DNA of 64,000 bases from Idiomarina sp. (GTDB lineage: Bacteria > Pseudomonadota > Gammaproteobacteria > Enterobacterales > Alteromonadaceae): assembly GCA_022565355.1 (NCBI GenBank), contig JAIUMU010000003.1, positions 119,989 to 183,988 on the forward strand, written 5' to 3'. Below, one piece after another: positions 9,226-28,076 of this stretch. Position numbers and translations under genes: made by a program. Each line of letters starts with the position of its first letter. Position 1 is the first letter of the stretch. Below the pieces are notes generated by a model. It did not search any database and was not told the origin of the DNA. It worked only from the letters and a program-made list of their open reading frames with translations.

Positions 9226-9585
9226 GAGGTTTTCCTTTTAGGTGCTTACGAACAAACATATAGCCTTGTAATAAAGTGGTACAAGAGTGCAAAAAAATAC
9301 CACTCAGCACAAGCGAAAGTGGGTGAAGCGCGACAATTTGGCGTTGATTGTAGGGGTTCAAGGAAATTCGCGAAACAGTTACGGGACTGTATTTCCATTT
9401 TGTTCGTAAACTCGCGAAACAGCAGCCCCGCAAGTGGTGATTTTAAGTGATTATTAAATTAACAAAAAATCAACATCTATTAGTGGTAAGATAGCGTAAA
9501 TTTTCTCACTTCAGCAATATACGGGCGTATATATATTCACGTGTTCTTATAAACGTTTTAAATTAAGGCGGGTGAACAACATTTG

Positions 9586-11748
9586 ATGCAACCAAATCGG
9601 GAAGAAAGAGTAACAACACAAACGATTTTTGAATTAATCGGCCAACATGCGAGCCGAGATAAACTGCTGCAGGCGATGGTAGCCTGGGTAGAGAACATTA
9701 TTCCCGAGGCGATCGTATCCATTATGGAATATGACAAGGCAACCAACACGCTTAGTTTAGCCAGTGGCGTACACTTCTCAGCAGAATTTCAAAAAGAGTT
9801 ACAACAAATTGAAGTTAGCCCTAACGGGGGAACCTGCTGTGTAGCTGCGCATTCTCGCGAGGTTGTGATAACAGATAACTTTCTTACCGACACCACTTGG
9901 CCGGGGTTCAAGCATGTAGCCACTACAGAACACCTAAAAGCATGTTGGGCTGCACCGGTAATAGGCGCCAACAGTGATCTTAAGGGCACTTTTTCAGCTT
10001 ATTTCCGTGAGCCTCGCAAGCCTACTGAACGGGAAATAAAACTTATTAAACGTGCGGCCAGCATGATCGCTCTTGCTTTTGATCACCAGCGCGAACGCAG
10101 TTTGCGGAACGAATTGAACGAACGCTACGCCTCCTTGTTCCGCAACCATCCTGATGCTGTTTTTGAACTCGATATGAATGGGAATTTTATTGCCGCTAAC
10201 GCCGCAACAGAAAAGCTTTCTGGATTCCCTGAACGGCAAATGCTCGGTACGCATTACAGTTCATTTATCATTGAAGAGTACCAGGCGCTGGCCAATGAAG
10301 CGTTTGAGAAAGCAAAAGCTAGTGAACCGCAAAGCTTTGAAATTGCTGCGGTACACGCTAACAATGGGCAGTTTTGGCTCGCTATGACGATCTTGCCGAT
10401 TATCATCAACGATGTTGTGGTCGGGGTATTTGGTATTGGTCGCGATATTACAGAACAAATTGAACAGAAAGAGTATTTAGAAAATCAACGCACGCACGAT
10501 ACCTTAACCGGCTTACCTAATCGCGCTTATTTTGAGCGCAATTTGAATCACGAACTGAAGCGCAATAACACGGAAAATCGTGGGTTTGCGGTACTCTATA
10601 TTGATTTAGACGATTTCCGTTCGATCAATGAAAGCTTAGGCCATGAAGTTGGTGATGAGTTACTTGCCGCAGTAGCGAAACGCATTCTTGCCTGCACATG
10701 CAAACAAGATACGGTTTCGCGGCTAGCGGCTGATGAGTTTGTGGTTCTATTACCCAATCTACACAATCAGCAATTTGCAATTAAAGTAGCGGAAGAGATT
10801 CTTCAGGCGCTAACACAACCATTCCAAATTGGCCGGCATCAACTTGCACTAAGCGCTAGCATCGGCATCAGCAGCGTTAACCAGCAAACACGCAACGCTG
10901 CGGAAATTATTAAGCAAGCCGACATGGCCATGAGTGAAGCAAAGCGCCAAGGGTGCAACACGTGGCATTGGTATGAAGGCGAAACTGCACTGGTTCATAC
11001 TGAGTACACAGCAATGCGCTTGGATATCGCCGAGGCCATTGAACAGGAGCAGTTCATTATCCATTATCAACCGATAGTTGATAGTGAAACAGGGATTACC
11101 AAAGGCTTTGAAGCACTCATCCGCTGGCACCATCCTACCCGAGGAATGATTGCACCCTGTTCTTTTATCCCTCTCGCTGAGCGTACCGGGCAAATTATTG
11201 CGATCGGTCAGCAAGTACTGCATCAAGCTTGTAAAGAAATTGCGGCATGGAATCAAGAGCACAAGCAGGCCATGACCCTAGCAGTCAATATTTCCCCCTT
11301 GCAGTTTCGCCGCGCGAGTTTCCTAGATGAAGTAATCAGTGCACTGCAGAAAAGTGGTTTGCCAGCAGAAATGCTTGAGCTTGAAGTTACCGAGAGTGTG
11401 CTGGTATTGGGCGCCGAGCGTACCATCGATATTCTAGAAAAAATTCGCGGGTTGGGCGTTCGCGTAGCCATTGATGATTTTGGTACGGGTTACTCTAGCT
11501 TAAGTTATCTGCGCCACCTGCCGATTGATAAAATCAAGATTGATCGCAGTTTTGTGCAGCATTTACCTGACAATCGTGAAGATTGTGCGATTGTACAAGG
11601 CCTAATTACCATGGCCCACCATTTAGGCCTTACAGTTGTTGCTGAAGGCGTTGAAACCAAAGAACAGAGTGAATTTTTAAAGAGTATAGAATGCGATTTA
11701 CTACAAGGGTTTTACTTCGCTCGGCCCGCGCTGTTAGAGCTTTCCTGA
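9586..11748 (+). CDS. GAF-PAS-GGDEF(degenerate)-EAL cyclic-di-GMP signalling protein
   Basis: GAF-like N-terminus, then a PAS-like segment (HPDAVFELDMNGNFIAAN). GGDEF domain has AADEF in place of GGDEF. EAL domain carries the EALIRW motif. ATG at 9586 sits one codon after the TTG at 9583. Confidence 0.85.
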   Translation: MQPNREERVTTQTIFELIGQHASRDKLLQAMVAWVENIIPEAIVSIMEYDKATNTLSLASGVHFSAEFQKELQQIEVSPNGGTCCVAAHSREVVITDNFLTDTTWPGFKHVATTEHLKACWAAPVIGANSDLKGTFSAYFREPRKPTEREIKLIKRAASMIALAFDHQRERSLRNELNERYASLFRNHPDAVFELDMNGNFIAANAATEKLSGFPERQMLGTHYSSFIIEEYQALANEAFEKAKASEPQSFEIAAVHANNGQFWLAMTILPIIINDVVVGVFGIGRDITEQIEQKEYLENQRTHDTLTGLPNRAYFERNLNHELKRNNTENRGFAVLYIDLDDFRSINESLGHEVGDELLAAVAKRILACTCKQDTVSRLAADEFVVLLPNLHNQQFAIKVAEEILQALTQPFQIGRHQLALSASIGISSVNQQTRNAAEIIKQADMAMSEAKRQGCNTWHWYEGETALVHTEYTAMRLDIAEAIEQEQFIIHYQPIVDSETGITKGFEALIRWHHPTRGMIAPCSFIPLAERTGQIIAIGQQVLHQACKEIAAWNQEHKQAMTLAVNISPLQFRRASFLDEVISALQKSGLPAEMLELEVTESVLVLGAERTIDILEKIRGLGVRVAIDDFGTGYSSLSYLRHLPIDKIKIDRSFVQHLPDNREDCAIVQGLITMAHHLGLTVVAEGVETKEQSEFLKSIECDLLQGFYFARPALLELS

Positions 11749-14490
11749 ACGCACCGGTGGGCTAAAGTAATACCCTTGAAAAATATCACACCCCTGCTCT
11801 AACAAGATATTGAACTGCTCCTCCGTTTCTACCCCTTCTGCTACCACAATCAAATCCAATGTATGGCCGAGAGAGATAATACTTTTTGTGAGCTTGCGGT
11901 GAGTGCGCACTTCTTCTGCAGTGGCAGTAGGAGAAGACACGAACGAACGATCTATCTTTAATTGATCAAGTGGTAAGCGCTGCAAGTACCCTAAGTTTGA
12001 GTAACCCGTACCAAAATCATCCAATGAGAACCGAACACCGCGTTCCCGCAGCGCAAGCATTTTCCGAATTGCATGCTCCGTATCGCCAATAAGCATAGAT
12101 TCCGTTATTTCCAGAATAAGTTTTTCCGAGCGAGCGCCTGTTTCTTCAACAATACTAAGTACTTGCTCTACAAAATTATCGGCCCGTAATTGTTTCACGC
12201 TTACATTCACCGACATGGTCCAATCGTGACGAACTTCATGATCAGCCCATTCAACGAGCTTATGGCAGGCCTTTCGTAACACCCAACTACCCAGTAAAAT
12301 TATATCCGCTGATTGTTCAGCTACGGTTATAAAATCACCAGGAGCGATCATGCCACGAATAGGGTGCCGCCATCGAACAAGCGCCTCTACGCCCACCGTT
12401 TCGCTGTAACGATTTACCTTCGGTTGGTAATGCAGCTCTAGCTCATCATTCAAAATACCACGATGTAAATCACGTTGTAATTCAAGGCGGGCATTCATAC
12501 GTGCTTCGATATCTGCATCAAAAACAACACAGGTATTGCGCCCCGCGTCTTTTGCCTCAAACATTGCTTGGTCTGCCTGCTGTAGCAAACGCTCAACACT
12601 TTCGGCTGTAGGCGTGATCAGAGTAACGCCAATACTTACGGTTAATATGTAGGAATCCTTGGCAAGTACGAATGGCTGTAACATTGCGTTATTAAGTGCA
12701 TCAGTGAGCTCCAAAACATGCTTCAGCGCTGCTTGCTCGCTATCACCAGTGTTTGCTAACAGGATCACAAACTCATCAGCAGTAACACGAGAAACCGTAT
12801 CCTCACTCGACACAAGATCTAAAAGCCGTTCACCCACCGCGCTTAAAACCCGATCGCCCTCTTCTTGACCAAGGCTATCGTTAAGCATCTTGAAATTATC
12901 GAGATCGATCGATAGAAGCGCCCCATAGCGTTGTTTTTTCTTCGCGTTCACGAGGGCCGTGCCAATACGTTCATGTAAAAGTGCACGGTTAGGCAGGTGA
13001 GTAAGCGCATCGTAATACGATAGCTCTTCAATTTGTTGCTGGGATCGCCGCTGCTCAGTAATATCTAACATCACGCCGTGCCATAAATTACCAGAGGCAT
13101 CGCTTTCACCTGGGCGAGAGTGAATATTCACCCACAGCAAATCGTTGTTCACATTCAAACGGCCTTGCCATGTAAAGGGTACACCTCTTTGAATCGCCGA
13201 TTCCTCGGTTTCAACAAAGCTTTCAATATCATCTTGATGAATAAGGTCTACCGCATAATCAAGTGTTTCGCTCAACGGCATTGCCGCGGGGATACCAAGC
13301 ATCGCTCGAGCACGCGGGCTCAAATAATAAAATTCTCGCGTGCCATCATTTCGTAATCGCAATTGATAAACACCAGCTGGGATTAGCGCTGTAAGCTTGC
13401 CATAACGCTCCAAAGATTGAACTAAAGCACTTTGCCGAACATTAATCTCATGTTCAGCAGTGCGCAGATAGCCTTGAGCTCTGCGAGCCGCAAACCATAG
13501 TGCCAGATATGCCGACAACAACACGGCAAATGGGATTAATAAACTATACAGCCACTCATGTATCACTTTCGTGCGGCTGCGCATCGCTACCGCCGTTATG
13601 TTGTATTCGGGCAACGGATTGATGTAAGCATATGCTTGCTCTTTGCTTCCATCCCGATCAATTTTTCGTTGGTACTGATAAACGCCCTCAGACTCATGCA
13701 TTATTTGCCGCAATTCTGGAGATATTTGCGCTTGATAAAGCTCAGCAAGTGTTTCTTCCGTGTGCTCACGAACAAGCGGATATACATAAGATAAATAGTG
13801 ATCAGGGCGCACCAGCGAAACTTGAATACCTTCCGGAACCACCATGTTAATGGATAACCGCAGCCCTCGTTCGAGCTCAAATACCAAGCTCATAAAGCCA
13901 AGCAGCTCACCATTATCAGCAAAAATCGGCGTGCGCATAGGCACTACCCAGCGGTTAATTGGTTCGAAGAAGTAAGGACGCGCAATATGAAACCCAGGAT
14001 TGGCCAGTGCGCTCTCGAATTCGGCAGCCGCCAAGCTAACACCATGAAGAGAAGGCGCTGGTTCGTTAACATCAGTAAAGCTAGTAACCCAAACATCGCC
14101 CACTGCCGTAACAAACGCCAAACCAATCACGCCCTTCTGTGGTAATTCAATGCGTTGTAAATATTTTTGTGCGGCTTCACGATTGGCAAATACATCGTTA
14201 TAAACTAAATCGTTACCAACCGTTCTTAAGAATAAATCCGTATTCGAGAAATGTGATCGCACACCTTGCTCAAGCATTTCAGCAACGTGTTTTAATTCAT
14301 GGTCACTACTGGTAACGCTGCGGCTCCAAAGGCTGGCACAAATCACTAAAAAGATAGCAAACAAAGCCCACGCAGCAACACTTACAACCACGCGTAACGA
14401 GCCAACATATGTATTTGCAGCAGAGGTTCTGGTAACACCCATCTGGGTTAATTCATTCCCTTGCTTAGTAGCGCCTTCTTCCAAGCTCAA
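11734..14490 (-). CDS. membrane sensor PAS-GGDEF(degenerate)-EAL cyclic-di-GMP protein
   Basis: 918 aa with two TM segments flanking a periplasmic sensor region and a PAS-like segment. GGDEF domain has TADEF and the EAL motif is EALVRW. The TTG start at 14490 is uncertain; an alternative ATG is at 14442. Confidence 0.85.
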   Translation of the reverse strand: MSLEEGATKQGNELTQMGVTRTSAANTYVGSLRVVVSVAAWALFAIFLVICASLWSRSVTSSDHELKHVAEMLEQGVRSHFSNTDLFLRTVGNDLVYNDVFANREAAQKYLQRIELPQKGVIGLAFVTAVGDVWVTSFTDVNEPAPSLHGVSLAAAEFESALANPGFHIARPYFFEPINRWVVPMRTPIFADNGELLGFMSLVFELERGLRLSINMVVPEGIQVSLVRPDHYLSYVYPLVREHTEETLAELYQAQISPELRQIMHESEGVYQYQRKIDRDGSKEQAYAYINPLPEYNITAVAMRSRTKVIHEWLYSLLIPFAVLLSAYLALWFAARRAQGYLRTAEHEINVRQSALVQSLERYGKLTALIPAGVYQLRLRNDGTREFYYLSPRARAMLGIPAAMPLSETLDYAVDLIHQDDIESFVETEESAIQRGVPFTWQGRLNVNNDLLWVNIHSRPGESDASGNLWHGVMLDITEQRRSQQQIEELSYYDALTHLPNRALLHERIGTALVNAKKKQRYGALLSIDLDNFKMLNDSLGQEEGDRVLSAVGERLLDLVSSEDTVSRVTADEFVILLANTGDSEQAALKHVLELTDALNNAMLQPFVLAKDSYILTVSIGVTLITPTAESVERLLQQADQAMFEAKDAGRNTCVVFDADIEARMNARLELQRDLHRGILNDELELHYQPKVNRYSETVGVEALVRWRHPIRGMIAPGDFITVAEQSADIILLGSWVLRKACHKLVEWADHEVRHDWTMSVNVSVKQLRADNFVEQVLSIVEETGARSEKLILEITESMLIGDTEHAIRKMLALRERGVRFSLDDFGTGYSNLGYLQRLPLDQLKIDRSFVSSPTATAEEVRTHRKLTKSIISLGHTLDLIVVAEGVETEEQFNILLEQGCDIFQGYYFSPPVRSGKL

Positions 14491-14654: not shown

Positions 14655-14696
14655 GCACCCGTAGCTCAGCTGGATAGAGCGCCGCCCTCCGGAGGC
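14655..14696 (+). pseudogene. truncated 5' half of tRNA-Arg(CCG)
   Basis: 42 nt identical to positions 1-42 of the intact tRNA at 14749 (acceptor 5' strand, D arm, anticodon stem-loop). It then diverges (aacggtcaattg). Confidence 0.85.
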
Positions 14697-14748: not shown

Positions 14749-14825
14749 GCACCCGTAGCTCAGCTGGATAGAGCGCCGCCCTCCGGAGGCGGAGGCCAGA
14801 GGTTCGAATCCTCTCGGGTGCGCCA
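14749..14825 (+). tRNA. tRNA-Arg (anticodon CCG), CCA encoded
   Basis: Cloverleaf readable by eye: acceptor GCACCCG/CGGGTGC, anticodon stem CCGCC/GGCGG with loop CT-CCG-GA, T arm AGAGG-TTCGAAT-CCTCT. Close to E. coli argX. Confidence 0.95.
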
Positions 14826-15092: not shown

Positions 15093-15273
15093 AAAGCGGC
15101 GTATCTAGCTGACGTGGCTCGGGAAACCGGAATTAAGCGCAGCACGTTAACTCGCCTTTACCATGAAACATGAAACCACCTCGCGTATTGACTTCAAAAC
15201 TTTCGAAATGCTGTGCAGGTTTCTTGATTGTGAGGTTGGGGAGTTATTGGAAATTGTTGACGAGGATCAGTAG
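15093..15273 (+). pseudogene. frameshifted remnant of a small Cro/CI-type HTH regulator, paralog of 27873..28076
   Basis: Reads ...VARETGIKRSTLTRLYHET then, after a shift, ETTSRIDFKTFEMLCRFLDCEVGELLEIVDEDQ*. The frameshift is a 7-bp tandem duplication, catgaaa/catgaaa at 15162-15175. The N-terminus is also truncated. Confidence 0.75.
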
Positions 15274-15472
15274 CGCCTCTAATCGTTTCCACACACTTGC
15301 AAAGACCGCCACTACAGCCATTCCACAAACCCTCCCCCTCGGTCAGATAGTTAACTTACCAAACCACAGAAATCGTAAACGAAAAATAATTTTAACTTTT
15401 ACTTGATCAAATTAGATTTCATGTTTATAGTTATCGTAAATCAATAATGATTTGTAACGTGGAGGAAAACAA

Positions 15473-16072
15473 ATGAGCGAGGTAACTATCAATTTAGTAT
15501 GTGAAACTATTTTTACTGGTATTCCGAGCAACCTAATTCAAAAGGCAGAGCCAGCAGATGCTACACATCATATGATCACGGGTTCATCTCTGAATCATGC
15601 CGGTGAGTTAGTTGAGGAAGCTCTTCAACCTGTCCAACTTAAAGACGAAAAATCGGCAACAAAGTTTCTCCTGAAGGAAGGTGATGTCGTGGTATTAACC
15701 CGCGGCAATTCATTTCGGGCTGCAATCGTCGACTCGAAAATCGTAAAGCTTAAACTGATACCTTCGGCTAATTTGGTGATTTTACGCCCTAACGCTTCGA
15801 AGGCAAAGCCAGCGGTGCTGGTCACTCACTTGAACTCTGCACTTGGTCAATCCCAAATGGAGCAGCTTGCTACAGGCACCACCATCAAGAATATACCCGC
15901 GAGCAAGCTAAAGGAACTGCGGTTTAAATTACCGAGCTTAGGAACACAGGGTCAAATTGACAGCTTGTTTTTTGCAAGTAACCAAGCCTATACCGCTGGC
16001 ATTGCAATGGTTGAGCAAGAGCGTAAAGTAGCGATGGCGAAGGTGAACGAGTTAATGCAAGGAGGCGCATAA
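15473..16072 (+). CDS. half-size HsdS-like specificity protein (single target-recognition domain)
   Basis: 199 aa with GGAGG RBS. One TRD-like region, then a conserved S-subunit helical motif (KLPSLGTQGQIDSLF...). Directly precedes an M-like gene with a 1-nt gap. Confidence 0.6.
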   Translation: MSEVTINLVCETIFTGIPSNLIQKAEPADATHHMITGSSLNHAGELVEEALQPVQLKDEKSATKFLLKEGDVVVLTRGNSFRAAIVDSKIVKLKLIPSANLVILRPNASKAKPAVLVTHLNSALGQSQMEQLATGTTIKNIPASKLKELRFKLPSLGTQGQIDSLFFASNQAYTAGIAMVEQERKVAMAKVNELMQGGA

Positions 16073-16073
16073 C

Positions 16074-17336
16074 ATGGCTATCAATTTCAACCAACAATTA
16101 GGGAAGTTAATAGATCAAGCGCGAGGTGAGTTTAAAGAAGAGCAAGCCTTATCACTGATTACGATTTTACTTTACATCAAGTCAAAAGATGCGAATGCCA
16201 TTGACGTGCTTCAGCGTATGGGGCTCGCGAATCAAAGAGCGGCGCTGAGAGATTTGCTTGCCACTTACTCAGAAGCAAGCAGCCACTCAGCTACACGAGC
16301 CATTGATTACGCAAATAACGAAGCGATTGCAGCCTTAATTTCGTTCGTTGCAAACATAGAAAATATAGGCCTTGCGAGCCAGGCTATGCGCGCCGCATTC
16401 CCAAACTCTCGGTCAATAACCGAGCACGTTTCTAACGCAAATGAAGTTAACCTGATACGTAGCCTGGTAAAGCCGAAGAAAACCGATAAAGTATTAGACC
16501 CAGCGGGGGGCATAGGCAATCTTTTATTATCATTGCCGAAAGCCAACATTGAGTTGCAAGAGCTTAACGCTGACACAGCAAGCATTTGCCAGATGCTTGC
16601 AAGTATTGAGAGCAAAGACATCCGCATTCACACAGGTAATAGCCTTGTTCAGCCGGCTTTTAAAGAAGCTAGTGCGGATTATGTGGTTATGACCCCGCCA
16701 CTTGGACTTCGGTTTGGCCGCGAACAAATCGACAAAATAAAGTCAGCTCCCTATTTACTGCCGCAAGAATCACAAACGTCCATTCCCATGACCGCTGGCG
16801 ATAGCCTGTGGCTTCAGTTAGCTTTATGGGCTTTAAACGACACCGGCAAAGGTTATGTATTTTTACCTAAAGGTTGGCTGTTCAGAGGCGGTTACGATGC
16901 CCAGGTGCGCGAGTACTTTGTCGAGAATGAGCTGATTGAAGCCGTTGTCCAAATGCCGAACAAGTTCTTCAGCCACACAGCTATTGCGCCCGTGTTACTT
17001 ATCCTCAATAAAGCAAAGGAAAAAGGCACCTCCGTTCGCTTTATCGACGCTGAAGCGACACAAAGTGACGCGGGCCTCGATTACCATTTAAGCTCGGACT
17101 ATATTGCCGAAATTGTGGGACTCATTACCGCCACCGAAATAGATGACCCAAGAGTCATCGAAAAATACGCACCAGACATACGCGAGCAAGACATGATTCT
17201 CGCCGTAAACCGGTACATTACGCCGCCAACGCATATTGAAGACATCAATTTCGAAGCAGAGTCTGCGAAATTAAAACAACTAGAAAGCACCTATGCAGAA
17301 GCCAAGCGCCAACTTAGCGCCCTGCTCGACAACTAA
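16074..17336 (+). CDS. N6-adenine DNA methyltransferase-like protein with non-canonical catalytic motif
   Basis: AdoMet motif I is VLDPAGGIGNLL. Motif IV reads VVMTPPLG (TPPL at 16692-16703) rather than (D/N/S)PP(Y/F/W). At 420 aa it is shorter than the canonical HsdM next door. Confidence 0.65.
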   Translation: MAINFNQQLGKLIDQARGEFKEEQALSLITILLYIKSKDANAIDVLQRMGLANQRAALRDLLATYSEASSHSATRAIDYANNEAIAALISFVANIENIGLASQAMRAAFPNSRSITEHVSNANEVNLIRSLVKPKKTDKVLDPAGGIGNLLLSLPKANIELQELNADTASICQMLASIESKDIRIHTGNSLVQPAFKEASADYVVMTPPLGLRFGREQIDKIKSAPYLLPQESQTSIPMTAGDSLWLQLALWALNDTGKGYVFLPKGWLFRGGYDAQVREYFVENELIEAVVQMPNKFFSHTAIAPVLLILNKAKEKGTSVRFIDAEATQSDAGLDYHLSSDYIAEIVGLITATEIDDPRVIEKYAPDIREQDMILAVNRYITPPTHIEDINFEAESAKLKQLESTYAEAKRQLSALLDN

Positions 17337-17347
17337 TTTAGGAGGAA

Positions 17348-19768
17348 ATGAACATGGATTACAGTGTACACAACAAACTTATTTCATTTATTTGGGGTAT
17401 CGCCGACGACTGCTTGCGAGACGTGTATGTTCGCGGAAAATACCGCGATGTTATTCTACCCATGGTAGTACTGCGCCGTTTAGATACATTGCTCGAGCCA
17501 AACAAAGATGCTGTATTAGAAGAAGTTAGATTCCAAAAAGAAGAAATGGGCGCAACGGAGCTGGATGATGCACCATTAATAGAAGCCAGTGGCTACGTGT
17601 TTTACAATACGTCTAAATGGACGCTTAAATCGCTGTTGAATACCGCCACGAACAACCAACAAATCCTACTTGCTAACTTCGAAGAGTATTTACTTGGTTT
17701 CAGTGACAATGTTAAAGAAATCATCGAGTGCTTTAACCTGCAGTCGCAAACTCGCCATATGGCGGCAAAGCAAGTCTTACTCGATGTAGTTGAGAAGTTT
17801 GTTTCGCCTTACATCAACTTAACGCCGGAAGCCGCTGAAGATCCTGACGGTAACAAAATGCCAGCCCTCACTAACCTCGGCATGGGCTATGTGTTTGAAG
17901 AGTTGATTCGGAAGTTCAACGAAGAAAACAATGAAGAGGCTGGGGAGCACTTTACTCCACGCGAAGTAATCGAGCTGATGACGCACATGGTCTTTGATCC
18001 GGTTAAAGACCAACTTCCACTTACCATGACTGTGTACGACCCCGCGTGTGGAAGTGGGGGCATGCTCACTGAGTCGCAAAACTTTATTGAAGAAAAATAC
18101 CCGAACGAAAGTCGTGATATTTACCTCTATGGTAAAGAAATCAACGATGAAACCTATGCGATTTGTAAATCGGACATGATGATTAAAGGCAACAACCCCG
18201 AGAACATTCGAGTGGGTTCAACTTTATCTACCGACGAGTTCGCGTCTTCACGATTTGATTTCATGCTCTCTAACCCTCCGTATGGCAAAAGCTGGGCGTC
18301 TGAACAAAAGCATATTAAAGACGGGGGCGATGTTATCGACCCACGGTTTAAAGTAACCCTCACCGATTACTGGGGTAACCGAGAGGAAGTAGACGCAACC
18401 CCGCGCTCTAGTGACGGCCAATTGCTGTTTCTGATGGAAATGGTCAGCAAAATGAAAAACCCATCGGAAAGTCCATTGGGTAGCCGCATTGCATCCGTTC
18501 ACAACGGTTCTTCATTGTTTACTGGCGATGCCGGCGGTGGTGAGAGTAATATACGCCGCTTCATTATTGAGAACGATATGCTGGAAGCAATTGTTCAGTT
18601 GCCGAATAACCTGTTCTACAACACCGGTATTACCACCTATATTTGGGTGCTGAACAATCACAAACCAGAAAACCGAAAAGGTAAAGTGCAGTTGATTGAT
18701 GCCAGCTTGCTCTATCGTAAGCTGCGCAAGAACCTTGGTAATAAAAATTGCGAATTCGCACCAGAGCACATCACTGAAATTACAGACACCTATCTGGCCT
18801 GCAGCGCTATCGAGCGGAAGCTAGACGAGAACAACGATCCAATCGGCATTGCAAGCCAAGTATTCAGCAACCAAGACTTTGGTTATTACAAAGTAACCAT
18901 TGAACGGCCAGATCGTCGCAAAGCCAGGTTTACTTCTGACGCTATTGCACCGCTCCGCTTTGACAAGCAACTAAGTAAAGTAATGACGCACCTGTATTCC
19001 GAGTATGGTGAGAGCGTTTATGAAACATCAGGATATGGTCCTTGCGGTAACAAGAGCTTTTTGCAGTCTATCGATAAAGAAATTTTGAGCTGGTGTGAAG
19101 ACAACGACATTAGCTTAAACGCAAAAGCTAAAACGAAACTTCTCGATGTAAAATACTGGTTAAAGCTCCAATCCTTACTAGAGGCTGCTGAGCAGCTGAT
19201 GGCGAATATCGGTCAAGAAGAGTTCGATGACTTTAACCATTTCAAAGTACTTTTCGATAAGGCATTAAAAGCATTGGGGATAAAGCTTTCTTCGCCGGAA
19301 AAGAACGCTATTCTAAATGCCGTCAGTTGGTATGACGAAAGCGCTCAGAAAGTCATAAAGAAATTACAGAAACTCAGCGGCGATAAACTCGATGCGTTGA
19401 TCACGCGTTATGACTGCCAAGTTGAAGATTTATCGCAGTACGGCTATTTTCCGACAGGTAAGCAAAACGAGTTTATCACCTATGAAACCAATGGTGATTT
19501 GCGCGATACCGAATCTGTAACGCTGGGGCAAAGCATCTACCAATACTTCCTTGATGAAGTGAAACCTCACGTGGATGAAGCCTGGATTAATCTCGATAGC
19601 GTAAAAATTGGTTACGAAATTAGTTTCAATAAATATTTCTACCGTCACAAACCGCTGCGTAGTTTAGAAGAGGTCGCAACTGACATCATCAACCTAGAAC
19701 AAAAAGCCGAAGGACTCATTGCACAGATACTGGGCGTGAAAGTGGCTGAAGTTCAGGGAGAATCGTAA
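17348..19768 (+). CDS. hsdM: type I restriction-modification methyltransferase subunit M
   Basis: HsdM N-terminal helix (FIWGIADDCLRD...), motif I YDPACGSGGML, motif IV LSNPPYG. The start may be the second ATG at 17354, which has better spacing to TAGGAGG. Confidence 0.9.
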   Translation: MNMDYSVHNKLISFIWGIADDCLRDVYVRGKYRDVILPMVVLRRLDTLLEPNKDAVLEEVRFQKEEMGATELDDAPLIEASGYVFYNTSKWTLKSLLNTATNNQQILLANFEEYLLGFSDNVKEIIECFNLQSQTRHMAAKQVLLDVVEKFVSPYINLTPEAAEDPDGNKMPALTNLGMGYVFEELIRKFNEENNEEAGEHFTPREVIELMTHMVFDPVKDQLPLTMTVYDPACGSGGMLTESQNFIEEKYPNESRDIYLYGKEINDETYAICKSDMMIKGNNPENIRVGSTLSTDEFASSRFDFMLSNPPYGKSWASEQKHIKDGGDVIDPRFKVTLTDYWGNREEVDATPRSSDGQLLFLMEMVSKMKNPSESPLGSRIASVHNGSSLFTGDAGGGESNIRRFIIENDMLEAIVQLPNNLFYNTGITTYIWVLNNHKPENRKGKVQLIDASLLYRKLRKNLGNKNCEFAPEHITEITDTYLACSAIERKLDENNDPIGIASQVFSNQDFGYYKVTIERPDRRKARFTSDAIAPLRFDKQLSKVMTHLYSEYGESVYETSGYGPCGNKSFLQSIDKEILSWCEDNDISLNAKAKTKLLDVKYWLKLQSLLEAAEQLMANIGQEEFDDFNHFKVLFDKALKALGIKLSSPEKNAILNAVSWYDESAQKVIKKLQKLSGDKLDALITRYDCQVEDLSQYGYFPTGKQNEFITYETNGDLRDTESVTLGQSIYQYFLDEVKPHVDEAWINLDSVKIGYEISFNKYFYRHKPLRSLEEVATDIINLEQKAEGLIAQILGVKVAEVQGES

Positions 19769-21096
19769 TGGAAAGTTTAGCGTTGATGCCGAAATATGAG
19801 GCTTATAAAGATTCTGGTATTGACTGGATAGAACAAATTCCGGAGGGTTGGGGGGTCGCAAGAATTAAAAACTACGCTGATGTCTTTAGTGGTGATAGTT
19901 TAAATGATAAACAAAAATCTCAGTATGAATCCGAAGATTTACGTCATCGCCCGTATATTTCTTCAAAGGATATAGATTTAAATTATTCCAAAATTAACTA
20001 TCTGAATGGGCTACGCATTCCTAAAGGGAGTAGCCATAAAGTTTGTCCATCGAACTCAACTTTAATGTGTATTGAGGGGGGGAGCGCGGGTAAGAAGATT
20101 GCATATACCAATCGAGATGTTTGCTTTGTTAATAAGCTGGCTTGCTTTGCTGCAAATAAAGGCATTGATAGTCATTTCCTTTATTACTATCTATGTAGTG
20201 TTACCTTTAAGAATCAGTTTTTTAACGCAATGACAGGTTTGATTGGTGGGGTTTCAATCTCATCAATTAAGAATTTTTGTCTTTTATTGCCTTCGACAAT
20301 TGAACAAGCAACGATTGTTAGCTTTCTCAATAAAAAAATATCCCAAATAGATGAAAGTATTGTGGCTAAAGAGCTGCAAATTAGCCTGCTAAAAGAGCGT
20401 AAGCAAATCATTATCCGTCAAGCCGTGACGCAAGGGCTTAATTCCAATGTGCCAATGAGAGACTCTGGTGTGGATTGGATAGGTCAAATTCCTGAGCGTT
20501 GGGAGATCATTCGGTTTAAAAATTTGTTTTCACAAAGCAGGCTGCCTGTTCGGAAAGAAGATGAAGTAGTCACTTCGTATCGAGATGGACAGGTCACTCT
20601 TCGTTCTAATCGGCGATTGGAAGGTTACACAGAGGCCATTATTGAGGGGGGCTATCAGGGGATTCGAAAGGGGCAGCTCGTTCTAAACTCTATGGATGCA
20701 TTTGAAGGCGCTATAGGAGTATCTGAATCTGATGGTAAGTGTACACCAGAATACGTAATTTGTGACCCAATTCGAACAGGAATATCTCAACATTATTTTG
20801 CATATTTGCTTCGTGAAATGGCATTGGCGAAGTACATCCAAGTTATCTGCAATGCAGTTAGGCAGCGTGCTGTCAGGATTCGATTTAATAATCTGGCTTC
20901 TAGGCTTATGGTACTTCCTCCAGAGGCTGAGCAGGAACAAATTGTCGAATTTATAGAGGCTGAAAAGAGTAAAATTGATAAAGGAATTGAATCTCTTCAA
21001 TTTCAAATTGAAAAACTCAAAGAATACAAAACCACCCTGATCAACAGCGCCGTGACAGGAAAAATAAAGATCACCCCAGAAATGGTTGAGCAATAG
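19768..21096 (+). CDS. hsdS: type I restriction-modification specificity subunit S (two TRDs)
   Basis: 442 aa. Two TRD-like halves are separated by conserved helical repeats (LLKERKQ..., EKLKEYKTTLINSAVTGKI). TAATG overlap with the hsdM stop. Confidence 0.9.
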   Translation: MESLALMPKYEAYKDSGIDWIEQIPEGWGVARIKNYADVFSGDSLNDKQKSQYESEDLRHRPYISSKDIDLNYSKINYLNGLRIPKGSSHKVCPSNSTLMCIEGGSAGKKIAYTNRDVCFVNKLACFAANKGIDSHFLYYYLCSVTFKNQFFNAMTGLIGGVSISSIKNFCLLLPSTIEQATIVSFLNKKISQIDESIVAKELQISLLKERKQIIIRQAVTQGLNSNVPMRDSGVDWIGQIPERWEIIRFKNLFSQSRLPVRKEDEVVTSYRDGQVTLRSNRRLEGYTEAIIEGGYQGIRKGQLVLNSMDAFEGAIGVSESDGKCTPEYVICDPIRTGISQHYFAYLLREMALAKYIQVICNAVRQRAVRIRFNNLASRLMVLPPEAEQEQIVEFIEAEKSKIDKGIESLQFQIEKLKEYKTTLINSAVTGKIKITPEMVEQ

Positions 21097-21105
21097 GATA
21101 CGAAT

Positions 21106-21324
21106 ATGTTCACGGTAAATCATCAAACCAACAGAATCAGCCCAGTTACGACGAAAAAATTCAGTGAGTTGGATTTTTCCGAGCGCAAGCATCTTCAGGA
21201 ATGGTTAGCACACGAACCTTCCGCACTCGGTGAAGAGTTGTTGATTATTCAGAAGGAGTTCGATGGCTTTGATGACACCCGTGAGCAATTCCGTTTAACG
21301 ACTTTCTCTGAGGAGCATCTATGA
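21106..21324 (+). pseudogene. N-terminal stub of a NucS/DUF91-like PD-(D/E)xK protein
   Basis: 72 aa. FSERKHLQEWLAHEPSALGEELLIIQKEFDGFDDT matches the usual N-terminal region of such proteins. It ends before the expected (R)xDLL...ExK nuclease core. Confidence 0.4.
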
Positions 21325-22022
21325 CTATTTACAAAATATTTTGTGATGAAAGCTGTCACCTTGAACATGATAGCGCAAACATCATGGTACTTGGTGCAAT
21401 TCACTGCACTGCCGAGAAAGCTATTGCTATTACAAAGCACATGAAGTGGTTGCGCCACCAACACAATTACACCCCCGAATTGAAGTGGAACAAGCTTAAT
21501 AAACAACAATGGCCGTTGTATCGAGATTTGATTGATATGATTACGTCAGACACCGATGTGCGCTTTAAAGCAACTGTCGTACTGAACAAAAGTATTCTCG
21601 ATCACCACCAATACAATGCTGGGTCTCACAGCGACTTTTACTACAAGATGTTTTATTACACCCTCCGCGACTTTTTGAAAGAAGGTAATGAGTATCGCAT
21701 CTACCTCGATTACATGGATACGTTAGGTGCCGAGAAAACACGAAAACTTTGTGAAGTACTGCAGAATGGTACACGGTGGCAATTAAAAGCGGTTGCCAAT
21801 GTCGTTCAGTCTTACGAAGTGCAATTAATTCAGCTGTGCGACCTATTGATAGGAGCCGTAGCGTACCGAAACCGCGACGACATTGAGCATAAAAGTGCCA
21901 TCAAAATGCAGTTTGTGGATTATTTAGAGTCAAAATTAGGTTACACATTGAATAACGGCACCCCACCTTGGGAGGAGCAATTTAATATTTTTCGCTTCCA
22001 ACCACGGAGGCATTATGCTTAG
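21321..22022 (+). CDS. DUF3800-like protein
   Basis: 233 aa. N-terminal IFCDESCH acidic motif and C-terminal LIQLCDLLIGAVAY motif, as in DUF3800. ATGA overlap with the upstream stub. Confidence 0.65.
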   Translation: MTIYKIFCDESCHLEHDSANIMVLGAIHCTAEKAIAITKHMKWLRHQHNYTPELKWNKLNKQQWPLYRDLIDMITSDTDVRFKATVVLNKSILDHHQYNAGSHSDFYYKMFYYTLRDFLKEGNEYRIYLDYMDTLGAEKTRKLCEVLQNGTRWQLKAVANVVQSYEVQLIQLCDLLIGAVAYRNRDDIEHKSAIKMQFVDYLESKLGYTLNNGTPPWEEQFNIFRFQPRRHYA

Positions 22023-22557
22023 TGAACCAATTGATTTAAGTAAGATCGATGCGACAAAAATTATTGACGTGCTCTACGGCTTCTTTCATCGCGATTTTGT
22101 TGCTGAGCGAACCTATTTAGCAAATAACATTTATATTAATCCGCGAAGCCATCGAAAAGACGAAGGAAAAGAGCTGGATTTCTGGCATTTAACCACGCGT
22201 GAAGATAAGGAACAGGTTTGGGAGAATGGCCAGCGAGTGACGAGATCAAATGGTCGCTACCCTGATTATGATCGAGGAAGTCGAATCGAATGGGTCAAGT
22301 TGATTCTTACGAACCATGCTCATGAGTCAATTAAGTTGTTTTATCACCGAGAAACTAATCGTAAACGTAGTATTCGTTTGTACTTGTGGGCATCTGATGA
22401 AGACTTTGTGGTGATACTACAAAAGTTGGGACGCGCGGATTCGTTCTTGGTTACGAGTTTCTTCGTTGACCACGATGGAAAGCGAAAAGACTTTGAGGAG
22501 AGGTTCCAGAATTACCTAGGCGGAGATCCCGACTTACAAGACTGTGAGTGGTTTTAA
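22015..22557 (+). CDS. hypothetical protein, translationally coupled to the DUF3800-like gene
   Basis: 180 aa with an 8-nt overlap with the preceding gene. I recognise no family. Basic, with an FWHLTTRED...RIEWVKLIL...IRLYLWA core. Confidence 0.6.
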   Translation: MLSEPIDLSKIDATKIIDVLYGFFHRDFVAERTYLANNIYINPRSHRKDEGKELDFWHLTTREDKEQVWENGQRVTRSNGRYPDYDRGSRIEWVKLILTNHAHESIKLFYHRETNRKRSIRLYLWASDEDFVVILQKLGRADSFLVTSFFVDHDGKRKDFEERFQNYLGGDPDLQDCEWF

Positions 22558-22875: not shown

Positions 22876-25800
22876 ATGGTTAGTAAAACGAACGAACAAG
22901 CGCTAGAGGCGGCAATCGAGAAAAGTCTGACCGGTACTTGTTTAGAGGAACTGAGTGCGGGTGTGCAATTTGCTGAGCCTGACTATATCGGTGCGTTTTA
23001 CAAAATTGGCCAAGCCTCTGACTTTAACAGCCAATATGCTCTCGATGAGCGTTACTTTTGGGCGTTTCTCGAAAAAACACAAGAGCCCGAGCTCGAAAAA
23101 CTTAAGCGCAACAACCCGACAGACTGGCAACGAAAACTGCTTGAACGGTACGACCGCCTAATCAAAAAGCATGGTGTTCTGCACCTGCTCAAAAAAGGTT
23201 TAAGTGTTGATGATGCGCATTTTAATCTGCTTTACCCAGCGCCGTTAGCCAGCAGCAGTGAGAAGGTGAAGCAGAACTTTTACGAGAACATTTTCAGTTG
23301 TACGCGTCAGGTTCGGTATTCTCACGCAAACCCGCTACAAGAGATTGACATGGTGCTGTTCATTAACGGCATCCCGCTGGTTACGTTAGAACTTAAAAAT
23401 GCTTGGACCGGACAAACAGCGCGATACCATGGTCAAAAGCAGTATCGCGACGACCGTGATACAACTCAGCCACTTTTGAACTTTGGTCGCTGTTTGGTTC
23501 ACATGGCTGTGGACACCGATGAAGTTTACATGACGACCAAGTTAGCAGGGAAAAGTACTTACTTCTTACCCTTCAATAAGGGTCATAACCTCGGTCAAGG
23601 TAACCCTCCTAATCCTAAGGGGCATAAGACCGCTTATTTGTGGGAGGAAGTGTTCAGCAAAAAAAGCCTCGCGAATATCATTCAGCATTTTGTGCGTCTT
23701 GACGGTTCCATTAAAGATCCGCTAGCAAAGCGAACGTTATTCTTCCCACGCTATCACCAACTGGACGTTGTAAGAAAGTTGGTTGCTCATGCTGCTACGC
23801 ATGGAGTTGGCCAAACTTATTTGATTCAGCACTCTGCTGGTTCGGGTAAATCCAACTCCATTACGTGGGCAGCATACCAACTCATAGAAACCTACCCTGC
23901 CTCTACAGAAGTAGCTGGTGGTAAAGGTCTCGACGAGCCTCTGTTTGATTCAGTAATTGTAGTGACCGACCGCCGCTTGCTTGATAAACAACTTCGCGAC
24001 AATATTCGCGAATTCTCTGAAGTTAAGAACATTATTGCGCCAGCTTTTAAATCATCGGAGCTAAAGAAAGCGCTAGAGAACGGCAAAAAAATAATCATAA
24101 CGACGATTCAAAAATTTCCGTTCATTATCGACGGCATTTCAGATCTCAGTGATAAGCGTTTTGCTGTCATCATTGATGAGGCCCATAGTTCTCAATCAGG
24201 CTCTGCTCACGACAATATGAACCGGGCTATTGGTAAAGCGGACGTAGAGGAAGCTGAAGACGCGCAGGATAAAATTCTGCAAGCAATGAAATCCCGTAAA
24301 ATGCGCGGAAATGCATCGTACCTAGCATTTACAGCAACACCTAAGAACACTACTTTGGAAAAGTTTGGCCAACGCCAAGAAGATGGTTCATTTAAGCCTT
24401 TCCATCTCTATTCAATGAAGCAGGCTATCGAGGAAGGGTTTATTCTCGATGTACTGAGCAATTACACAACCTATAAGAGCTATTACGAGATTGAGAAATC
24501 GATTGCTGAGAACCCTGAGTTCGATACCAAAAAGGCACAAAAGAAGCTAAGAGCCTATGTCGAGCGGAGCCAGCAAACGATCGATACCAAATCCCAAATT
24601 ATGCTCGAGCACTTTATCCCTCAAGTCGTAAATGCAAAAAAATTACGGGGTAAAGGCAAAGGCATGGTAGTGACGCAGAATATTGAGACTGCTATTCGTT
24701 ACTACCGGGCGATTAAGCACATTCTCGAAGAGCAAGGTAATCCGTTTAAAGTGCTTGTTGCCTTTTCCGGCACAAAAGAAGTAGACGGCATTGAATACAC
24801 AGAAGCTGATGTCAACGGCTTTGCAGAAACCGACACCAAAGACAAATTTGATACCGACGAATACCGGTTGCTTGTTGTCGCCAACAAGTACCTGACTGGT
24901 TTTGACCAACCAAAGCTGTGCGCGATGTACGTTGATAAAAAGCTCGCTGGTGTACTCTGCGTTCAGGCACTATCACGGCTTAACCGCAGTGCGCCAAAAC
25001 TGGGTAAAAAGACAGAGGATTTGTTTGTTCTCGACTTCTTTAATTCGGTTGATGACATTCAAGCAGCATTCGAGCCGTTCTATACTGCCACGTCATTAAC
25101 TCAAGCCACAGACATTAACGTACTTCATGAGCTTAAAGACAGCATGGACGATTCAGGTGTCTACGAATGGTATGAAGTTGAGGATTTTGTTACCCGTTAT
25201 TTTAATGAAGAAGACGCGCAAAGTTTAAGTCCGATTATCGACATTGCCGCTGCTCGCTTCAATCAAGAGTTGGAACTTGAGCACGAAGACAAGGTTGATT
25301 TCAAAATCAAAGCCAAGCAGTTCGTAAAAATATACGGTCAGATGGCTTCAATAATGCACTACGAAATAGTGGCTTGGGAGAAGCTGTTCTGGTTCTTAAA
25401 ATTCTTAATTCCGAAACTAAAAGTTCTAGATCCTGACGCTGATGCAATTGATGAGTTGCTCGAATCGGTAGATTTGAGCTCATATGGGCTACAACGAGTG
25501 AAGCTAAATAGTTCTATTAAGCTGAGCGATGATGAAACTGAGGTAGACCCACAAAATCCTAATCCACGCGGTGCGCACGGATCCGAAAAGGAGACGGACC
25601 AGCTAGACGAGATCATCCGCACATTCAATGACCGTTGGTTCCAAGGCTGGAGTGCAACGCCGGAAGAACAGCGCGTAAAATTTGTGAATATCGCGGAAAG
25701 TATTCGTCAACACCGGGATTTTGAGTCCAAGTACGCGAACAACCCTGACCCACACAATCGCGACTTGGCATTCCAAAAAATACTGAAAGAAATCATGCTA

Positions 25801-25902
25801 CAACGGCGCATGGACGAATTAGAGCTATATAAGCTGTTTGCAAATGACTCTGCGTTTAAAGCGTCGTGGACGCAGAGTATGCAGCGGATGGTTGAGGGTT
25901 GA
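22876..25902 (+). CDS. hsdR: type I restriction endonuclease subunit R
   Basis: 1008 aa. N-terminal PD-(D/E)xK motif (IDMVLFINGIPLVTLELKN), helicase motif I (SAGSGKS) and motif II (IIDEAHSSQ). Confidence 0.95.
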   Translation: MVSKTNEQALEAAIEKSLTGTCLEELSAGVQFAEPDYIGAFYKIGQASDFNSQYALDERYFWAFLEKTQEPELEKLKRNNPTDWQRKLLERYDRLIKKHGVLHLLKKGLSVDDAHFNLLYPAPLASSSEKVKQNFYENIFSCTRQVRYSHANPLQEIDMVLFINGIPLVTLELKNAWTGQTARYHGQKQYRDDRDTTQPLLNFGRCLVHMAVDTDEVYMTTKLAGKSTYFLPFNKGHNLGQGNPPNPKGHKTAYLWEEVFSKKSLANIIQHFVRLDGSIKDPLAKRTLFFPRYHQLDVVRKLVAHAATHGVGQTYLIQHSAGSGKSNSITWAAYQLIETYPASTEVAGGKGLDEPLFDSVIVVTDRRLLDKQLRDNIREFSEVKNIIAPAFKSSELKKALENGKKIIITTIQKFPFIIDGISDLSDKRFAVIIDEAHSSQSGSAHDNMNRAIGKADVEEAEDAQDKILQAMKSRKMRGNASYLAFTATPKNTTLEKFGQRQEDGSFKPFHLYSMKQAIEEGFILDVLSNYTTYKSYYEIEKSIAENPEFDTKKAQKKLRAYVERSQQTIDTKSQIMLEHFIPQVVNAKKLRGKGKGMVVTQNIETAIRYYRAIKHILEEQGNPFKVLVAFSGTKEVDGIEYTEADVNGFAETDTKDKFDTDEYRLLVVANKYLTGFDQPKLCAMYVDKKLAGVLCVQALSRLNRSAPKLGKKTEDLFVLDFFNSVDDIQAAFEPFYTATSLTQATDINVLHELKDSMDDSGVYEWYEVEDFVTRYFNEEDAQSLSPIIDIAAARFNQELELEHEDKVDFKIKAKQFVKIYGQMASIMHYEIVAWEKLFWFLKFLIPKLKVLDPDADAIDELLESVDLSSYGLQRVKLNSSIKLSDDETEVDPQNPNPRGAHGSEKETDQLDEIIRTFNDRWFQGWSATPEEQRVKFVNIAESIRQHRDFESKYANNPDPHNRDLAFQKILKEIMLQRRMDELELYKLFANDSAFKASWTQSMQRMVEG

Positions 25903-27872: not shown

Positions 27873-28076
27873 CTAATTATCAACGACCTTCAATAGCTCC
27901 CCTACATCACACTCTAAGAAACGACAAAGCGTTTCCAGCGTCTCGAAATCTATCCGAGAAGTAGTCTCATGATACAGGCGTGTCAAGGTGCTCCGGTTTA
28001 TTCCGGTTTCTCGCACCACATCTGAAATTTTAAGCTTCCTAGCCCCAAGTAGCTCTGCAAAGTTGCATTTTATCAT
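27873..28076 (-). CDS. small Cro/CI-type HTH transcriptional regulator
   Basis: 67 aa with an HTH (ISDVVRETGINRSTLTRLYH). Divergent from the xis/int operon. Confidence 0.8.
   Translation of the reverse strand: MIKCNFAELLGARKLKISDVVRETGINRSTLTRLYHETTSRIDFETLETLCRFLECDVGELLKVVDN

Follow-up and report, generated by a model that had tools for sequence, protein, structure and literature searches.

Control of type I restriction-modification (R-M) systems is usually described as post-translational, through ClpXP-dependent restriction alleviation. Half-size specificity (S) subunits, S.AhdI among them, are also known, the AhdI-type methylase being an M2S2 assembly. RptR, described in 2025 and encoded at the head of a type I island with DarTG2 between hsdS and hsdR, acts through repeated palindromes over its own -10 box to repress the promoter (PMC12255303). 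Esub1 of Streptococcus pyogenes (PDB 8VSQ/8VSR) is a half-S protein of about 200 amino acids (aa) that forms a homodimer in the crystal through its C-terminal helix, an arrangement of two identical DNA-binding heads that its authors called characteristic of a transcription factor; its gene stands apart from type I genes, and neither a partner M-like gene, nor clear binding to HsdM, nor a DNA site has been reported for it (PMC11754733). In the Ronin system of Escherichia coli ECOR55, a ronA-hsdS-hsdM unit acts as a decoy with a 61-aa membrane toxin as effector; its HsdM carries NPPF, and most genomes that harbor it lack hsdR (bioRxiv 10.1101/2023.04.06.535777). PacII-type systems have two M subunits, for N6-methyladenine (m6A) and N4-methylcytosine (m4C), both canonical (NPPF, NPPY) and sharing one full S (PMC5100572). 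Finally, methylases of the M.SsoII/M.EcoRII type themselves bind the promoter of the R-M system to which they belong (reviewed in PMC12707154). Here we describe a locus in a 64,000-nucleotide (nt) stretch of DNA from Idiomarina sp. (contig JAIUMU010000003.1, positions 119,989 to 183,988; hereafter the window) in which a complete type I system is headed by two additional genes, encoding a half-size S-like protein (S') and an HsdM-like protein (M'). On comparative sequence grounds we favor, with somewhat better than even confidence, the interpretation that the two proteins form an M'2S'2 complex that has probably ceased to work as a methylase and that binds operators at its own promoter, autoregulating the type I operon.

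A preliminary description of this DNA had placed tightly coupled S-like and M-like genes in front of hsdM-hsdS-hsdR and had pointed to two segments of the M-like protein, the S-adenosylmethionine (AdoMet) motif I LDPAGGIGNL and a T-P-P-L tetrapeptide at the position of catalytic motif IV. All of these features were recovered on the + strand at the positions listed in Table 1. A single nt separates the S' stop codon from the M' ATG, with a GGAGG sequence lying within the 3' end of S', and the 11-nt gap between the M' stop codon and the hsdM ATG contains AGGAGG. As read from the sequence, S', M', hsdM, hsdS and hsdR look like a single transcription unit.

The evidence that carries the regulatory interpretation lies upstream of S'. 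A repeated element was first noticed in the 320 nt preceding S' in the first eight loci of the family. Its occurrences were then counted in 44 non-identical loci, taking 220 nt upstream of S' from each (9.7 kb altogether) and using 545 kb from the same loci as background. The exact sequence TCGT-N9-ACGA is present 56 times in the S'-upstream segments versus 4 times in the remaining 545 kb, which corresponds to an approximately 780-fold enrichment upstream; one of the four background sites is an operator displaced by the wrong choice of the S' start codon. Two exact sites are found in 25 of the 44 loci and two sites with at most one mismatch in 32, while TCGTA half-sites occupy both positions in 42. 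These positions are fixed, at about -115 and -29 from the S' ATG. The extended consensus reads A(T)TCGTA-N7-TACGAA(T), with fixed half-sites and central bases that carry no information. Judged by its sequence, such a palindrome is the signature of a bipartite site contacted by two reading heads. In the largest clade, the region is laid out as a distal site (O1), about 21 nt, a -35 box CTTGC(A), a -10 box TAATAT, about 19 nt, a proximal site (O2), AGG and the ATG codon; the centers of O1 and O2 are about 86 bp apart.

The promoter region of the window was aligned with those of seven relatives from its own clade (alignment A2). The blocks AATCGTAAA..AAAATAATT in O1 and TCGTAAAT.AATAATGATTT in O2 are invariant in this set. 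O1 lies at the position of the TCGT-N9-ACGA site O1 of other clades, and O2 overlaps the expected transcription start. Variant right half-sites are shared by both operators of a locus: ACTA in locus L051, A(T/C)AT in L004, AC(T/A)A in L027 and AT(G/A)A in the window clade. Such paired deviation within a locus is what co-evolution with a reader encoded by the locus would predict. No recurrent additional operators were found elsewhere in the loci, for example before hsdR, and over the whole 64 kb of the window TCGT-N9-ACGA with up to one mismatch is not enriched (18 found versus 20 expected). An exact site at 40927 looks like chance. A perfect TCGTA-N7-TACGA at 44888-44904, inside a minus-strand open reading frame (ORF, 44386-44997) and far from the S'M' module, is probably also there by chance, eight specified bases being expected about once per 65 kb.

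Conservation of the gene arrangement was analyzed in neighborhoods drawn from exact-protein look-ups, a Moellerella wisconsensis conjugative plasmid, a one-genome-per-species scan (18 loci) and a metagenome scan (37 loci). Annotation with phmmer against reference sets of S', M', HsdM, HsdS and HsdR yielded 56 distinct M' loci, in which both reading frames are intact. S' lies immediately upstream of M' in every locus with room to see it (49 of 49), and in 37 of 41 an hsdM is found downstream of M', on the same strand and at a distance of at most 1.2 kb. Carriers include Aliidiomarina, Paraglaciecola, Glaciecola, Vibrio, Pseudoalteromonas, Colwellia, Legionella, Moellerella (on the plasmid), Desulfovibrionaceae and metagenomes. 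The partner systems are heterogeneous and belong to different families, their hsdM genes coding for 489-866 aa and their hsdR genes for 821-1180 aa; likewise, the cargo between hsdS and hsdR varies with the locus (an AAA_13 ATPase, an SLFN/AlbA_2 protein or DUF3644, and PDC-M04 in the window). Upstream neighbors of S' vary as well (resolvase, TnsE, an HD protein, a tRNA), and no further conserved gene separates them from S', which leaves no other candidate binder of the sites at the locus. Exceptions are L004, which has a convergent M-S pair, L060, where hsdR precedes hsdM, L055 and L065, which have no hsdM downstream, and L002 (11367-11960) and L012 (10236-10928), where only a 5' stump of hsdM (197-230 aa) follows S'-M'. 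Altogether, the S'M' pair is, almost always, the constant head-piece of type I operons whose other components change.

In L002 and L012, the hsdM stump is followed by a different, convergent type I system, which in one of the two has cyclic oligonucleotide-based antiphage signaling (CBASS) genes inside. The S'M' pair and its promoter can apparently outlive the system that they once headed. In L001 (8447-9100) and L007 (3325-3903), which represent two unrelated clades, a serine recombinase gene (Resolvase, PF00239) directly precedes the S' promoter; on the Moellerella plasmid (L009), the upstream genes include Tn7-like TnsA/TnsE. It seems that the entire S'M'-type I unit moves as cargo on various mobile elements.

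S' matches Methylase_S (PF01420) at an E-value of 3.9e-6, and its residues 4-197 match positions 199-390 of the 392-position PADLOC Specificity_I profile, that is, one half only; it does not conform to the HsdS layout of two target recognition domains (TRDs) and two conserved helical regions per chain. The closest solved relative of the S' profile is Esub1 (E 2e-16, residues 46-191). Across clades, S' aligns end to end with no insertions or deletions, at 30-46% identity and with shared invariant TRD positions. Type I TRDs normally diverge beyond recognition between systems. When the window is compared with the locus of Aliidiomarina halalkaliphila, identities amount to 94% for S', 95% for HsdM and 97% for HsdR, versus only 37.5% for HsdS; as far as the sequences tell, HsdS is the subunit that switched specificity between the two loci and S' did not. 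Since the S' TRD is conserved while HsdS diversifies, S' would be expected to read a constant target. Neither S' nor M' has a helix-turn-helix (HTH) match in Pfam, and no meaningful relative of S' was found among phage records.

M' matches N6_Mtase (PF02384) at E 2.3e-36 and has no match to HsdM_N (PF12161). Its AlphaFold2 (AF2) model, with a predicted local distance difference test score (pLDDT) of 85.9, contains an all-helical N-domain of about 110 aa that Foldseek aligned to HsdM chains. The best Foldseek matches of the model are all HsdM chains (PacII M1/M2, S. thermophilus HsdM and EcoR124I M; template modeling scores 0.65-0.73), and the M' profile matches EcoR124 M at E 2e-44, reaching residue 512 of the 520-residue chain and including the C-terminal helix. 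The fold comprises a helical N-domain, a Rossmann catalytic domain and a C-terminal helix, which in EcoR124I binds S. The structure prediction, one of the checks put forward in the preliminary description, thus returned a confident HsdM fold that superposes on PacII M and EcoR124I M. In the alignment, T-P-P-L occupies the columns of the NPPY motif of both EcoR124 M and the window's own HsdM. M' and the adjacent HsdM share only 26% identity, confined to the catalytic core; because of this low value, sequence comparison identifies M' as an old, separate lineage and not a recent duplicate of its neighbor. Mixed complexes with the neighboring subunits were considered and judged unlikely, as S' shows no BLAST-detectable similarity to the adjacent HsdS and M' resembles HsdM over the core alone.

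A word-indexed search returned 34 full-length M' relatives in two tiers, of 76-89% and 29-36% identity. The Pro-Pro dipeptide is invariant in all 34, and its flanks read (T/S/E/V)-PP-(L/F/M). An exhaustive profile search of 1.84 billion representatives then defined a core M' family of approximately 45 clusters at 50% identity, with lengths of 406-438 aa, generic HsdMs ranking only below them. Motif IV was tallied in 42 representatives of these 50%-identity clusters. The most common versions are TPPF (7), QPPF (6), EPPF (3), EPPL (3) and QPPW (3); TPPL, TPPM, SPPM, QAPW, EPPW and QPPL occur twice each, and SPPF, VPPM, EPPM, RPPL, NPPI, TPPI, QPPY and NPPY once each. The canonical motif thus fails in 41 of the 42 representatives. 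The first residue is chiefly T, Q, E, S, V or R, and flips from T to N among near relatives (P0009); by this sequence record, the residue meant to accept a hydrogen bond from the target amino group appears essentially unconstrained. Further departures affect the AdoMet motifs. In the columns of motif X, canonical HsdMs have Thr in 83% and Pro in 84% of cases, whereas the M' family has (S/A)(N/S). In most of the family motif I reads DGA(A/C)G(L/I)(A/G), with the second glycine mostly replaced by Ala.

These changes are not accompanied by signs of relaxed selection. Ratios of nonsynonymous to synonymous substitution rates (dN/dS), determined against four relatives of 76-79% identity, are 0.07-0.09 for M' and 0.11 for S', and residues invariant within each family are present in both proteins. 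The M' family is under strong purifying selection. The preliminary description had considered three explanations for the pair: an inactivated second M/S module, a methylase with unusual chemistry and a DNA-sensing module with a non-methylating role. The first took its cue from the non-canonical motif IV of the window copy, and simple decay would have gained support from homologs having NPPY or NPPF, with TPPL as a private mutation. Instead, the departure from the canonical motif extends to the whole family. Simple decay is rejected because the motif IV change is family-wide, the genes are under purifying selection and the gene order is kept across genera; with frames intact in 56 loci, dN/dS of 0.07-0.11, 26% identity to the adjacent HsdM and invariant family residues, the notion of S'M' as a type I M/S duplicate that was inactivated and is now decaying has become extremely improbable. 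The second explanation is disfavored by the freely variable first residue of motif IV and the loss of motif X. The third is the one we retain in part: a non-methylating DNA-reading role is favored, but the paired palindromes indicate the module's own promoter as its target and not a separate effector. In conclusion, S'M' is best regarded as a module in its own right, of type I methyltransferase origin and maintained by selection; it is most likely not a second R-M specificity, and it is not a copy in decay.

We infer complex formation, operator binding, the direction of regulation and the loss of catalysis as follows. Two S' chains would dimerize via their C-terminal helices, as Esub1 does, to form two identical DNA-reading heads, each bearing one M' through the retained M' C-terminal helix. 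The resulting M'2S'2 complex would recognize the symmetric bipartite site A(T)TCGTA-N7-TACGAA(T). Two such predicted sites flank the promoter of S'-M'-hsdM-hsdS, one upstream of the -35 box and the other at or just past the start point, near the ribosome-binding site. Binding would most likely repress the operon, the position of O2 arguing for repression; O1, centered near -67, might provide cooperativity, looping, or activation at low occupancy as in C proteins. Negative autoregulation exerted by the first cistrons would allow a burst of type I and cargo expression in a naive cell, to be followed by a low steady state. M' itself would serve as a DNA-clamping, possibly base-flipping scaffold and is probably not an enzyme, because it has lost the Asn/Asp of motif IV, in many members the aromatic residue, and motif X.

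Various observations weigh against this interpretation, some concerning the sites and others the proteins. Two of the 44 loci, L024 and L034, have no TCGTA sites. In the window clade the left half-site is invariant while the right halves read ATAA (O1) and ATGA (O2), leaving both operators asymmetric, a configuration not obviously required by a symmetric homodimer. In most clades O2 falls within the transcribed leader and may have a role at the RNA level. In principle, the palindromes might be targets of a host transcription factor, paired palindromes around promoters being a generic feature of regulated genes; S'M' would then act elsewhere, for example by modulating the assembly or activity of HsdM/HsdS/HsdR. 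We regard this as doubtful. The sites travel with the module through Gammaproteobacteria, Legionella, Desulfovibrionaceae and a plasmid while the upstream neighbors change, and both operators of a locus change together in the variant clades. As to modulation of the neighboring complex, mixed complexes appear unlikely given that S' is unlike HsdS and that M' and HsdM share only 26% identity over the core.

On the protein side, the S' fold is derived from profile matches only, the AF2 model having a pLDDT of 45 (7 close sequences). M' keeps the acidic residue of motif II and the (N/D)SL of motif III; motif I is near-canonical in the window clade (DPAGGIG), so the AdoMet site is partly preserved; about 60% of clusters have an aromatic residue (F/W/Y) at the fourth place of motif IV; and (S/T)PPF is found in about 8 of 42, or one fifth. 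This last motif resembles the SPPF of N4-cytosine methylases. Given these survivals, M' may possess residual or altered catalysis. Pursued to its end, this line of thought makes M'2S'2 an active methyltransferase with an unusual motif IV and a fixed palindromic specificity of approximately TCGTA-N7-TACGA, possibly sharing HsdR with the neighboring system, to which it would add a second specificity; because two of its sites lie in its own promoter, expression would depend on whether they are methylated. Retention of the fold, of the C-terminal helix and of the Pro-Pro of motif IV, together with NPPY in one of the 42 representatives, agrees with activity, and so does the site itself: positions 5 and 13 are A and T, placing adenines on opposite strands 8 bp apart. 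The same 8-bp spacing is found in the sites of other M/S-type methylases such as EcoR124I and AhdI. However, some of the residues that occupy the first position of motif IV (T, Q, E, S, V, R) are unable to accept a hydrogen bond from an amino group, and motif X (F-x-T-P) is lost throughout the family. Moreover, a specificity that stays constant across genera beside a diversifying HsdS is unlike the way R-M specificities evolve, and most operators replace one of the symmetric A/T positions (TCGTT on the left of O1, AACGA on the right of O2). An active methylase is thus an unlikely, though not negligible, alternative to the autoregulatory complex.

A further possibility, to which we also give low probability, is that S'M' functions as a decoy or guard for DNA-mimic anti-restriction proteins such as Ocr and ArdA, in the manner of Ronin; with a DNA-binding groove like that of a type I methylase, it would either act as a sponge that shields the real enzyme or signal that a mimic is present. 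The HsdS-HsdM pair of Ronin acts independently of methyl transfer (bioRxiv 10.1101/2023.04.06.535777). A decoy requires neither catalysis nor a diversifying TRD, matching M' and S', and the obligate adjacency to a type I system fits; in addition, distant half-S/M pairs carry genes for RonA-like small membrane proteins (a 60-aa ORF in V. gigantis and an 80-aa protein in L. salivarius). On the other hand, neither the window nor the rest of the family shows a small transmembrane or other constant effector gene beside the pair, a pure sponge leaves the paired promoter palindromes unexplained, and Ronin usually occurs without hsdR and with a canonical NPPF. A small transmembrane ORF was sought beside the pair in the window and in L004, and none was found, the 86-aa ORF that follows M' in L004 not being hydrophobic. 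The S' leader of about 35 nt and the 1-nt and 11-nt gaps after S' and M' leave no room for a ronA-like gene, and the related loci have no conserved small ORF beside S'M'.

The decoy and autoregulatory interpretations are compatible if binding of a mimic releases the repressor. M'2S'2 would then be both repressor and sensor: phage- or plasmid-encoded mimics such as Ocr or ArdA would pull it off the operators, de-repressing the type I operon and its abortive-infection cargo. Binding of DNA mimics is envisaged on the premise that the complex keeps the DNA-binding groove of type I methyltransferases. We put this extension forward tentatively, at long odds. If true, it would amount to a transcriptional guard made from a dead enzyme and would suggest an answer to a question raised by RptR, namely, how infection induces type I islands.

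Two distant half-S/M pairs deserve separate mention. On the Vibrio gigantis plasmid NZ_CP092386.1 (L010, 7921-10188), a half-S gene and a short M gene with CPPF as motif IV follow a complete type I system. The pair is preceded by a 60-aa ORF that has a hydrophobic segment and overlaps the half-S start, and two TACA-N6-TGTA palindromes flank a promoter-like TTGACA/TACTAT sequence before it. This layout resembles that published for Ronin, with its 61-aa RonA, hsdS, hsdM and essential upstream non-coding region. On the Ligilactobacillus salivarius plasmid NZ_CP102520.1 (L011, 8124-10334), a 185-aa half-S is paired with an M-like protein whose motif IV is DPPM; next comes an 80-aa protein with two hydrophobic segments and, further downstream, a large methyltransferase, a DEAD helicase and a GIY-YIG nuclease. 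The L011-type half-S/M arrangement is present on many L. salivarius megaplasmids. Paired bipartite palindromes may be general for half-S/M modules.

In the window, S'M' sits at the tRNA-proximal end of a genomic island (Table 1). The last 25 nt of the tRNA-Arg(CCG) gene recur exactly at 50742-50766 and with two mismatches at 53957-53981; together with the repeat preceding the gene, these look like the attachment (att) repeats of two tandem islands, of about 36 kb and about 3 kb, inserted at this tRNA gene. Just upstream of the S' promoter lies a frameshifted partial copy (15110-15273, + strand) of a 67-aa HTH_26 (Cro/C1-type) gene (27873-28076, - strand); this inverted copy is probably a scar of island rearrangement. 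Just outside the island, two genes for large GGDEF-EAL proteins (9583-11748, + strand; 11734-14490, - strand), one with GAF and PAS domains, converge with a 15-nt 3' overlap. The closest relatives of the whole locus are found in Aliidiomarina. Differences between M' of the window and that of A. halalkaliphila (16074-16660 versus 10001-10590 of L005) concern almost only residues 1 to about 195, the C-terminal 225 residues being nearly identical; this confinement to the N-terminal part indicates a recombination junction inside M' that swapped the N-domain and the motif I-III region. Within the cargo, PADLOC E-values are 2e-30 for the PDC-S11 fragment, 3e-82 for PDC-M04A and 6.5e-65 for PDC-M04B. 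The fragment is a 72-aa ORF (21106-21324) that matches only the first 64 residues of the candidate defense protein PDC-S11 (about 375 aa); it is apparently a remnant of PDC-S11, displaced by the PDC-M04A/PDC-M04B pair (21321-22557).

Table 1. Coordinates of the S'M' module, its putative promoter elements, the type I operon and flanking island features in the window. A2 denotes the alignment of the promoter region with seven relatives of the window clade.
Feature	Position	Strand	Remarks
tRNA-Arg(CCG)	14749-14825		its 5' part is repeated exactly over 42 nt ahead of the gene, at 14655-14696
O1, distal operator-like site TCGTAAACGAAAAATAA	15373-15389		conserved TCGTA half-site, right half degenerate (ATAA) in the window clade; ends 13 nt before the -35 box
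Putative -35 box TTGATC	15403-15408	+	promoter scan; CTTGATC invariant in A2
Putative -10 box TATAGT	15426-15431	+	promoter scan, 17-nt spacer; TAT..T conserved in A2
O2, proximal operator-like site TCGTAAATCAATAATGA (TCGT-N9-ATGA)	15434-15450		one mismatch to TCGT-N9-ACGA; starts 2 nt past the -10 box
Shine-Dalgarno sequence GGAGG of S'	15461-15465	+	read from the sequence; invariant in A2
S', half-size specificity-like subunit	15473-16072	+	199 aa, single TRD and one C-terminal helix; PF01420, PADLOC
M', HsdM-like protein	16074-17336	+	420 aa; degenerate catalytic and AdoMet motifs
M', AdoMet motif X position	16428-16445	+	VSNANE instead of the (F/Y)(F/Y)TP of canonical HsdM
M', motif I LDPAGGIGNL	16494-16523	+	residues 141-150; near-canonical in the window clade
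M', motif IV T-P-P-L	16692-16703	+	residues 207-210; in place of (N/D)PP(Y/F)
hsdM, canonical	17348-19768	+	806 aa, NPPY; HsdM_N and N6_Mtase; PADLOC MTase_I E 3e-263
hsdS, canonical, full-length, two TRDs	19768-21096	+	PADLOC Specificity_I E 9e-94, residues 7-436
Cargo between hsdS and hsdR	21106-22557	+	PDC-S11 N-terminal fragment, then PDC-M04A (DUF3800) and PDC-M04B; three small ORFs
hsdR	22876-25902	+	1008 aa; HSDR_N, ResIII, SWI2_SNF2 and T1R_D3-like domains; TIGR00348 E 3e-62
Integrase	28420-29616		

In the full-text literature, no description was found of the M' family, of inactive HsdM paralogues heading type I operons, of a second hsdM or of the site. Our sequence-based analysis points to transcriptional control of R-M by re-purposed parts of a type I methylase. 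If confirmed, S'M' would provide a case of a bacterial pseudo-methyltransferase serving as a sequence-specific DNA-binding scaffold and would illustrate how R-M parts are recycled into regulation. Confirmation would also yield an annotation rule, that S'M' genes are not to be counted as a second specificity when methylomes are read, and a simple test system, composed of two proteins and a 17-bp site, for the switching of type I islands and their defense cargo.

How S'M' stands relative to the systems described at the outset can now be specified. With the M2S1 cores of EcoR124I and PacII (PDB 7BST, 7VRU/7VS4) it shares the HsdM fold of M' and, in S', a type I TRD and a conserved-region helix; its candidate site is bipartite with a non-specific spacer, like type I sites. 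It differs from these cores in that motif IV of M' is x-PP-hydrophobic, motif X is lost and the chain is about 100 aa shorter, while S' is half-size and its TRD does not diversify. Assignment to the M1M2S (m6A+m4C) class was rejected, M' having TPPL, 26% identity to HsdM over the core and a half-S of its own. Like Esub1, S' combines a single TRD-like head with a C-terminal helix in about 200 aa, and by analogy may dimerize; unlike Esub1, it is in every case coupled in translation to M', at the head of a type I operon. The proposed S'M' complex has in common with Ronin an HsdS/HsdM pair that serves something other than host protection, methyl transfer being dispensable in Ronin; it has no effector, its motif IV is degenerate and a type I system is attached to it (hsdM downstream in 37 of 41 loci).

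For an amino-methyltransferase fold used as a nucleic-acid scaffold, METTL14 is a precedent: this non-catalytic partner of METTL3 has EPPL instead of DPPW. The same EPPL is found in 3 of 42 M' clusters. As a eukaryotic protein that works on RNA and is evolutionarily unconnected with the M' family, METTL14 is a precedent for a pseudo-methyltransferase only. M.SsoII and M.EcoRII are type II C5-methylases that are catalytically active and carry an extra repressor domain at the N terminus; in S'M', unlike these enzymes, a separate and apparently non-catalytic paralogue would regulate, with DNA read by an S-type TRD. RptR and C proteins resemble S'M' in standing at the head of an R-M or defense operon, with repeated palindromes at their own promoter; they autoregulate through these sites, located at or around the -10 box. 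The RptR islands share the hsdS-cargo-hsdR layout. C proteins, however, are small and of the HTH type, and RptR is a four-helix protein of 9 kDa, whereas S'M' would be a methyltransferase-like hetero-tetramer with a calculated mass of about 140 kDa and a putative regulatory function. S'M' would thus represent a second head-of-operon module for type I islands, unrelated to RptR and with a precisely predicted operator, resembling C proteins and RptR in role and not by family.

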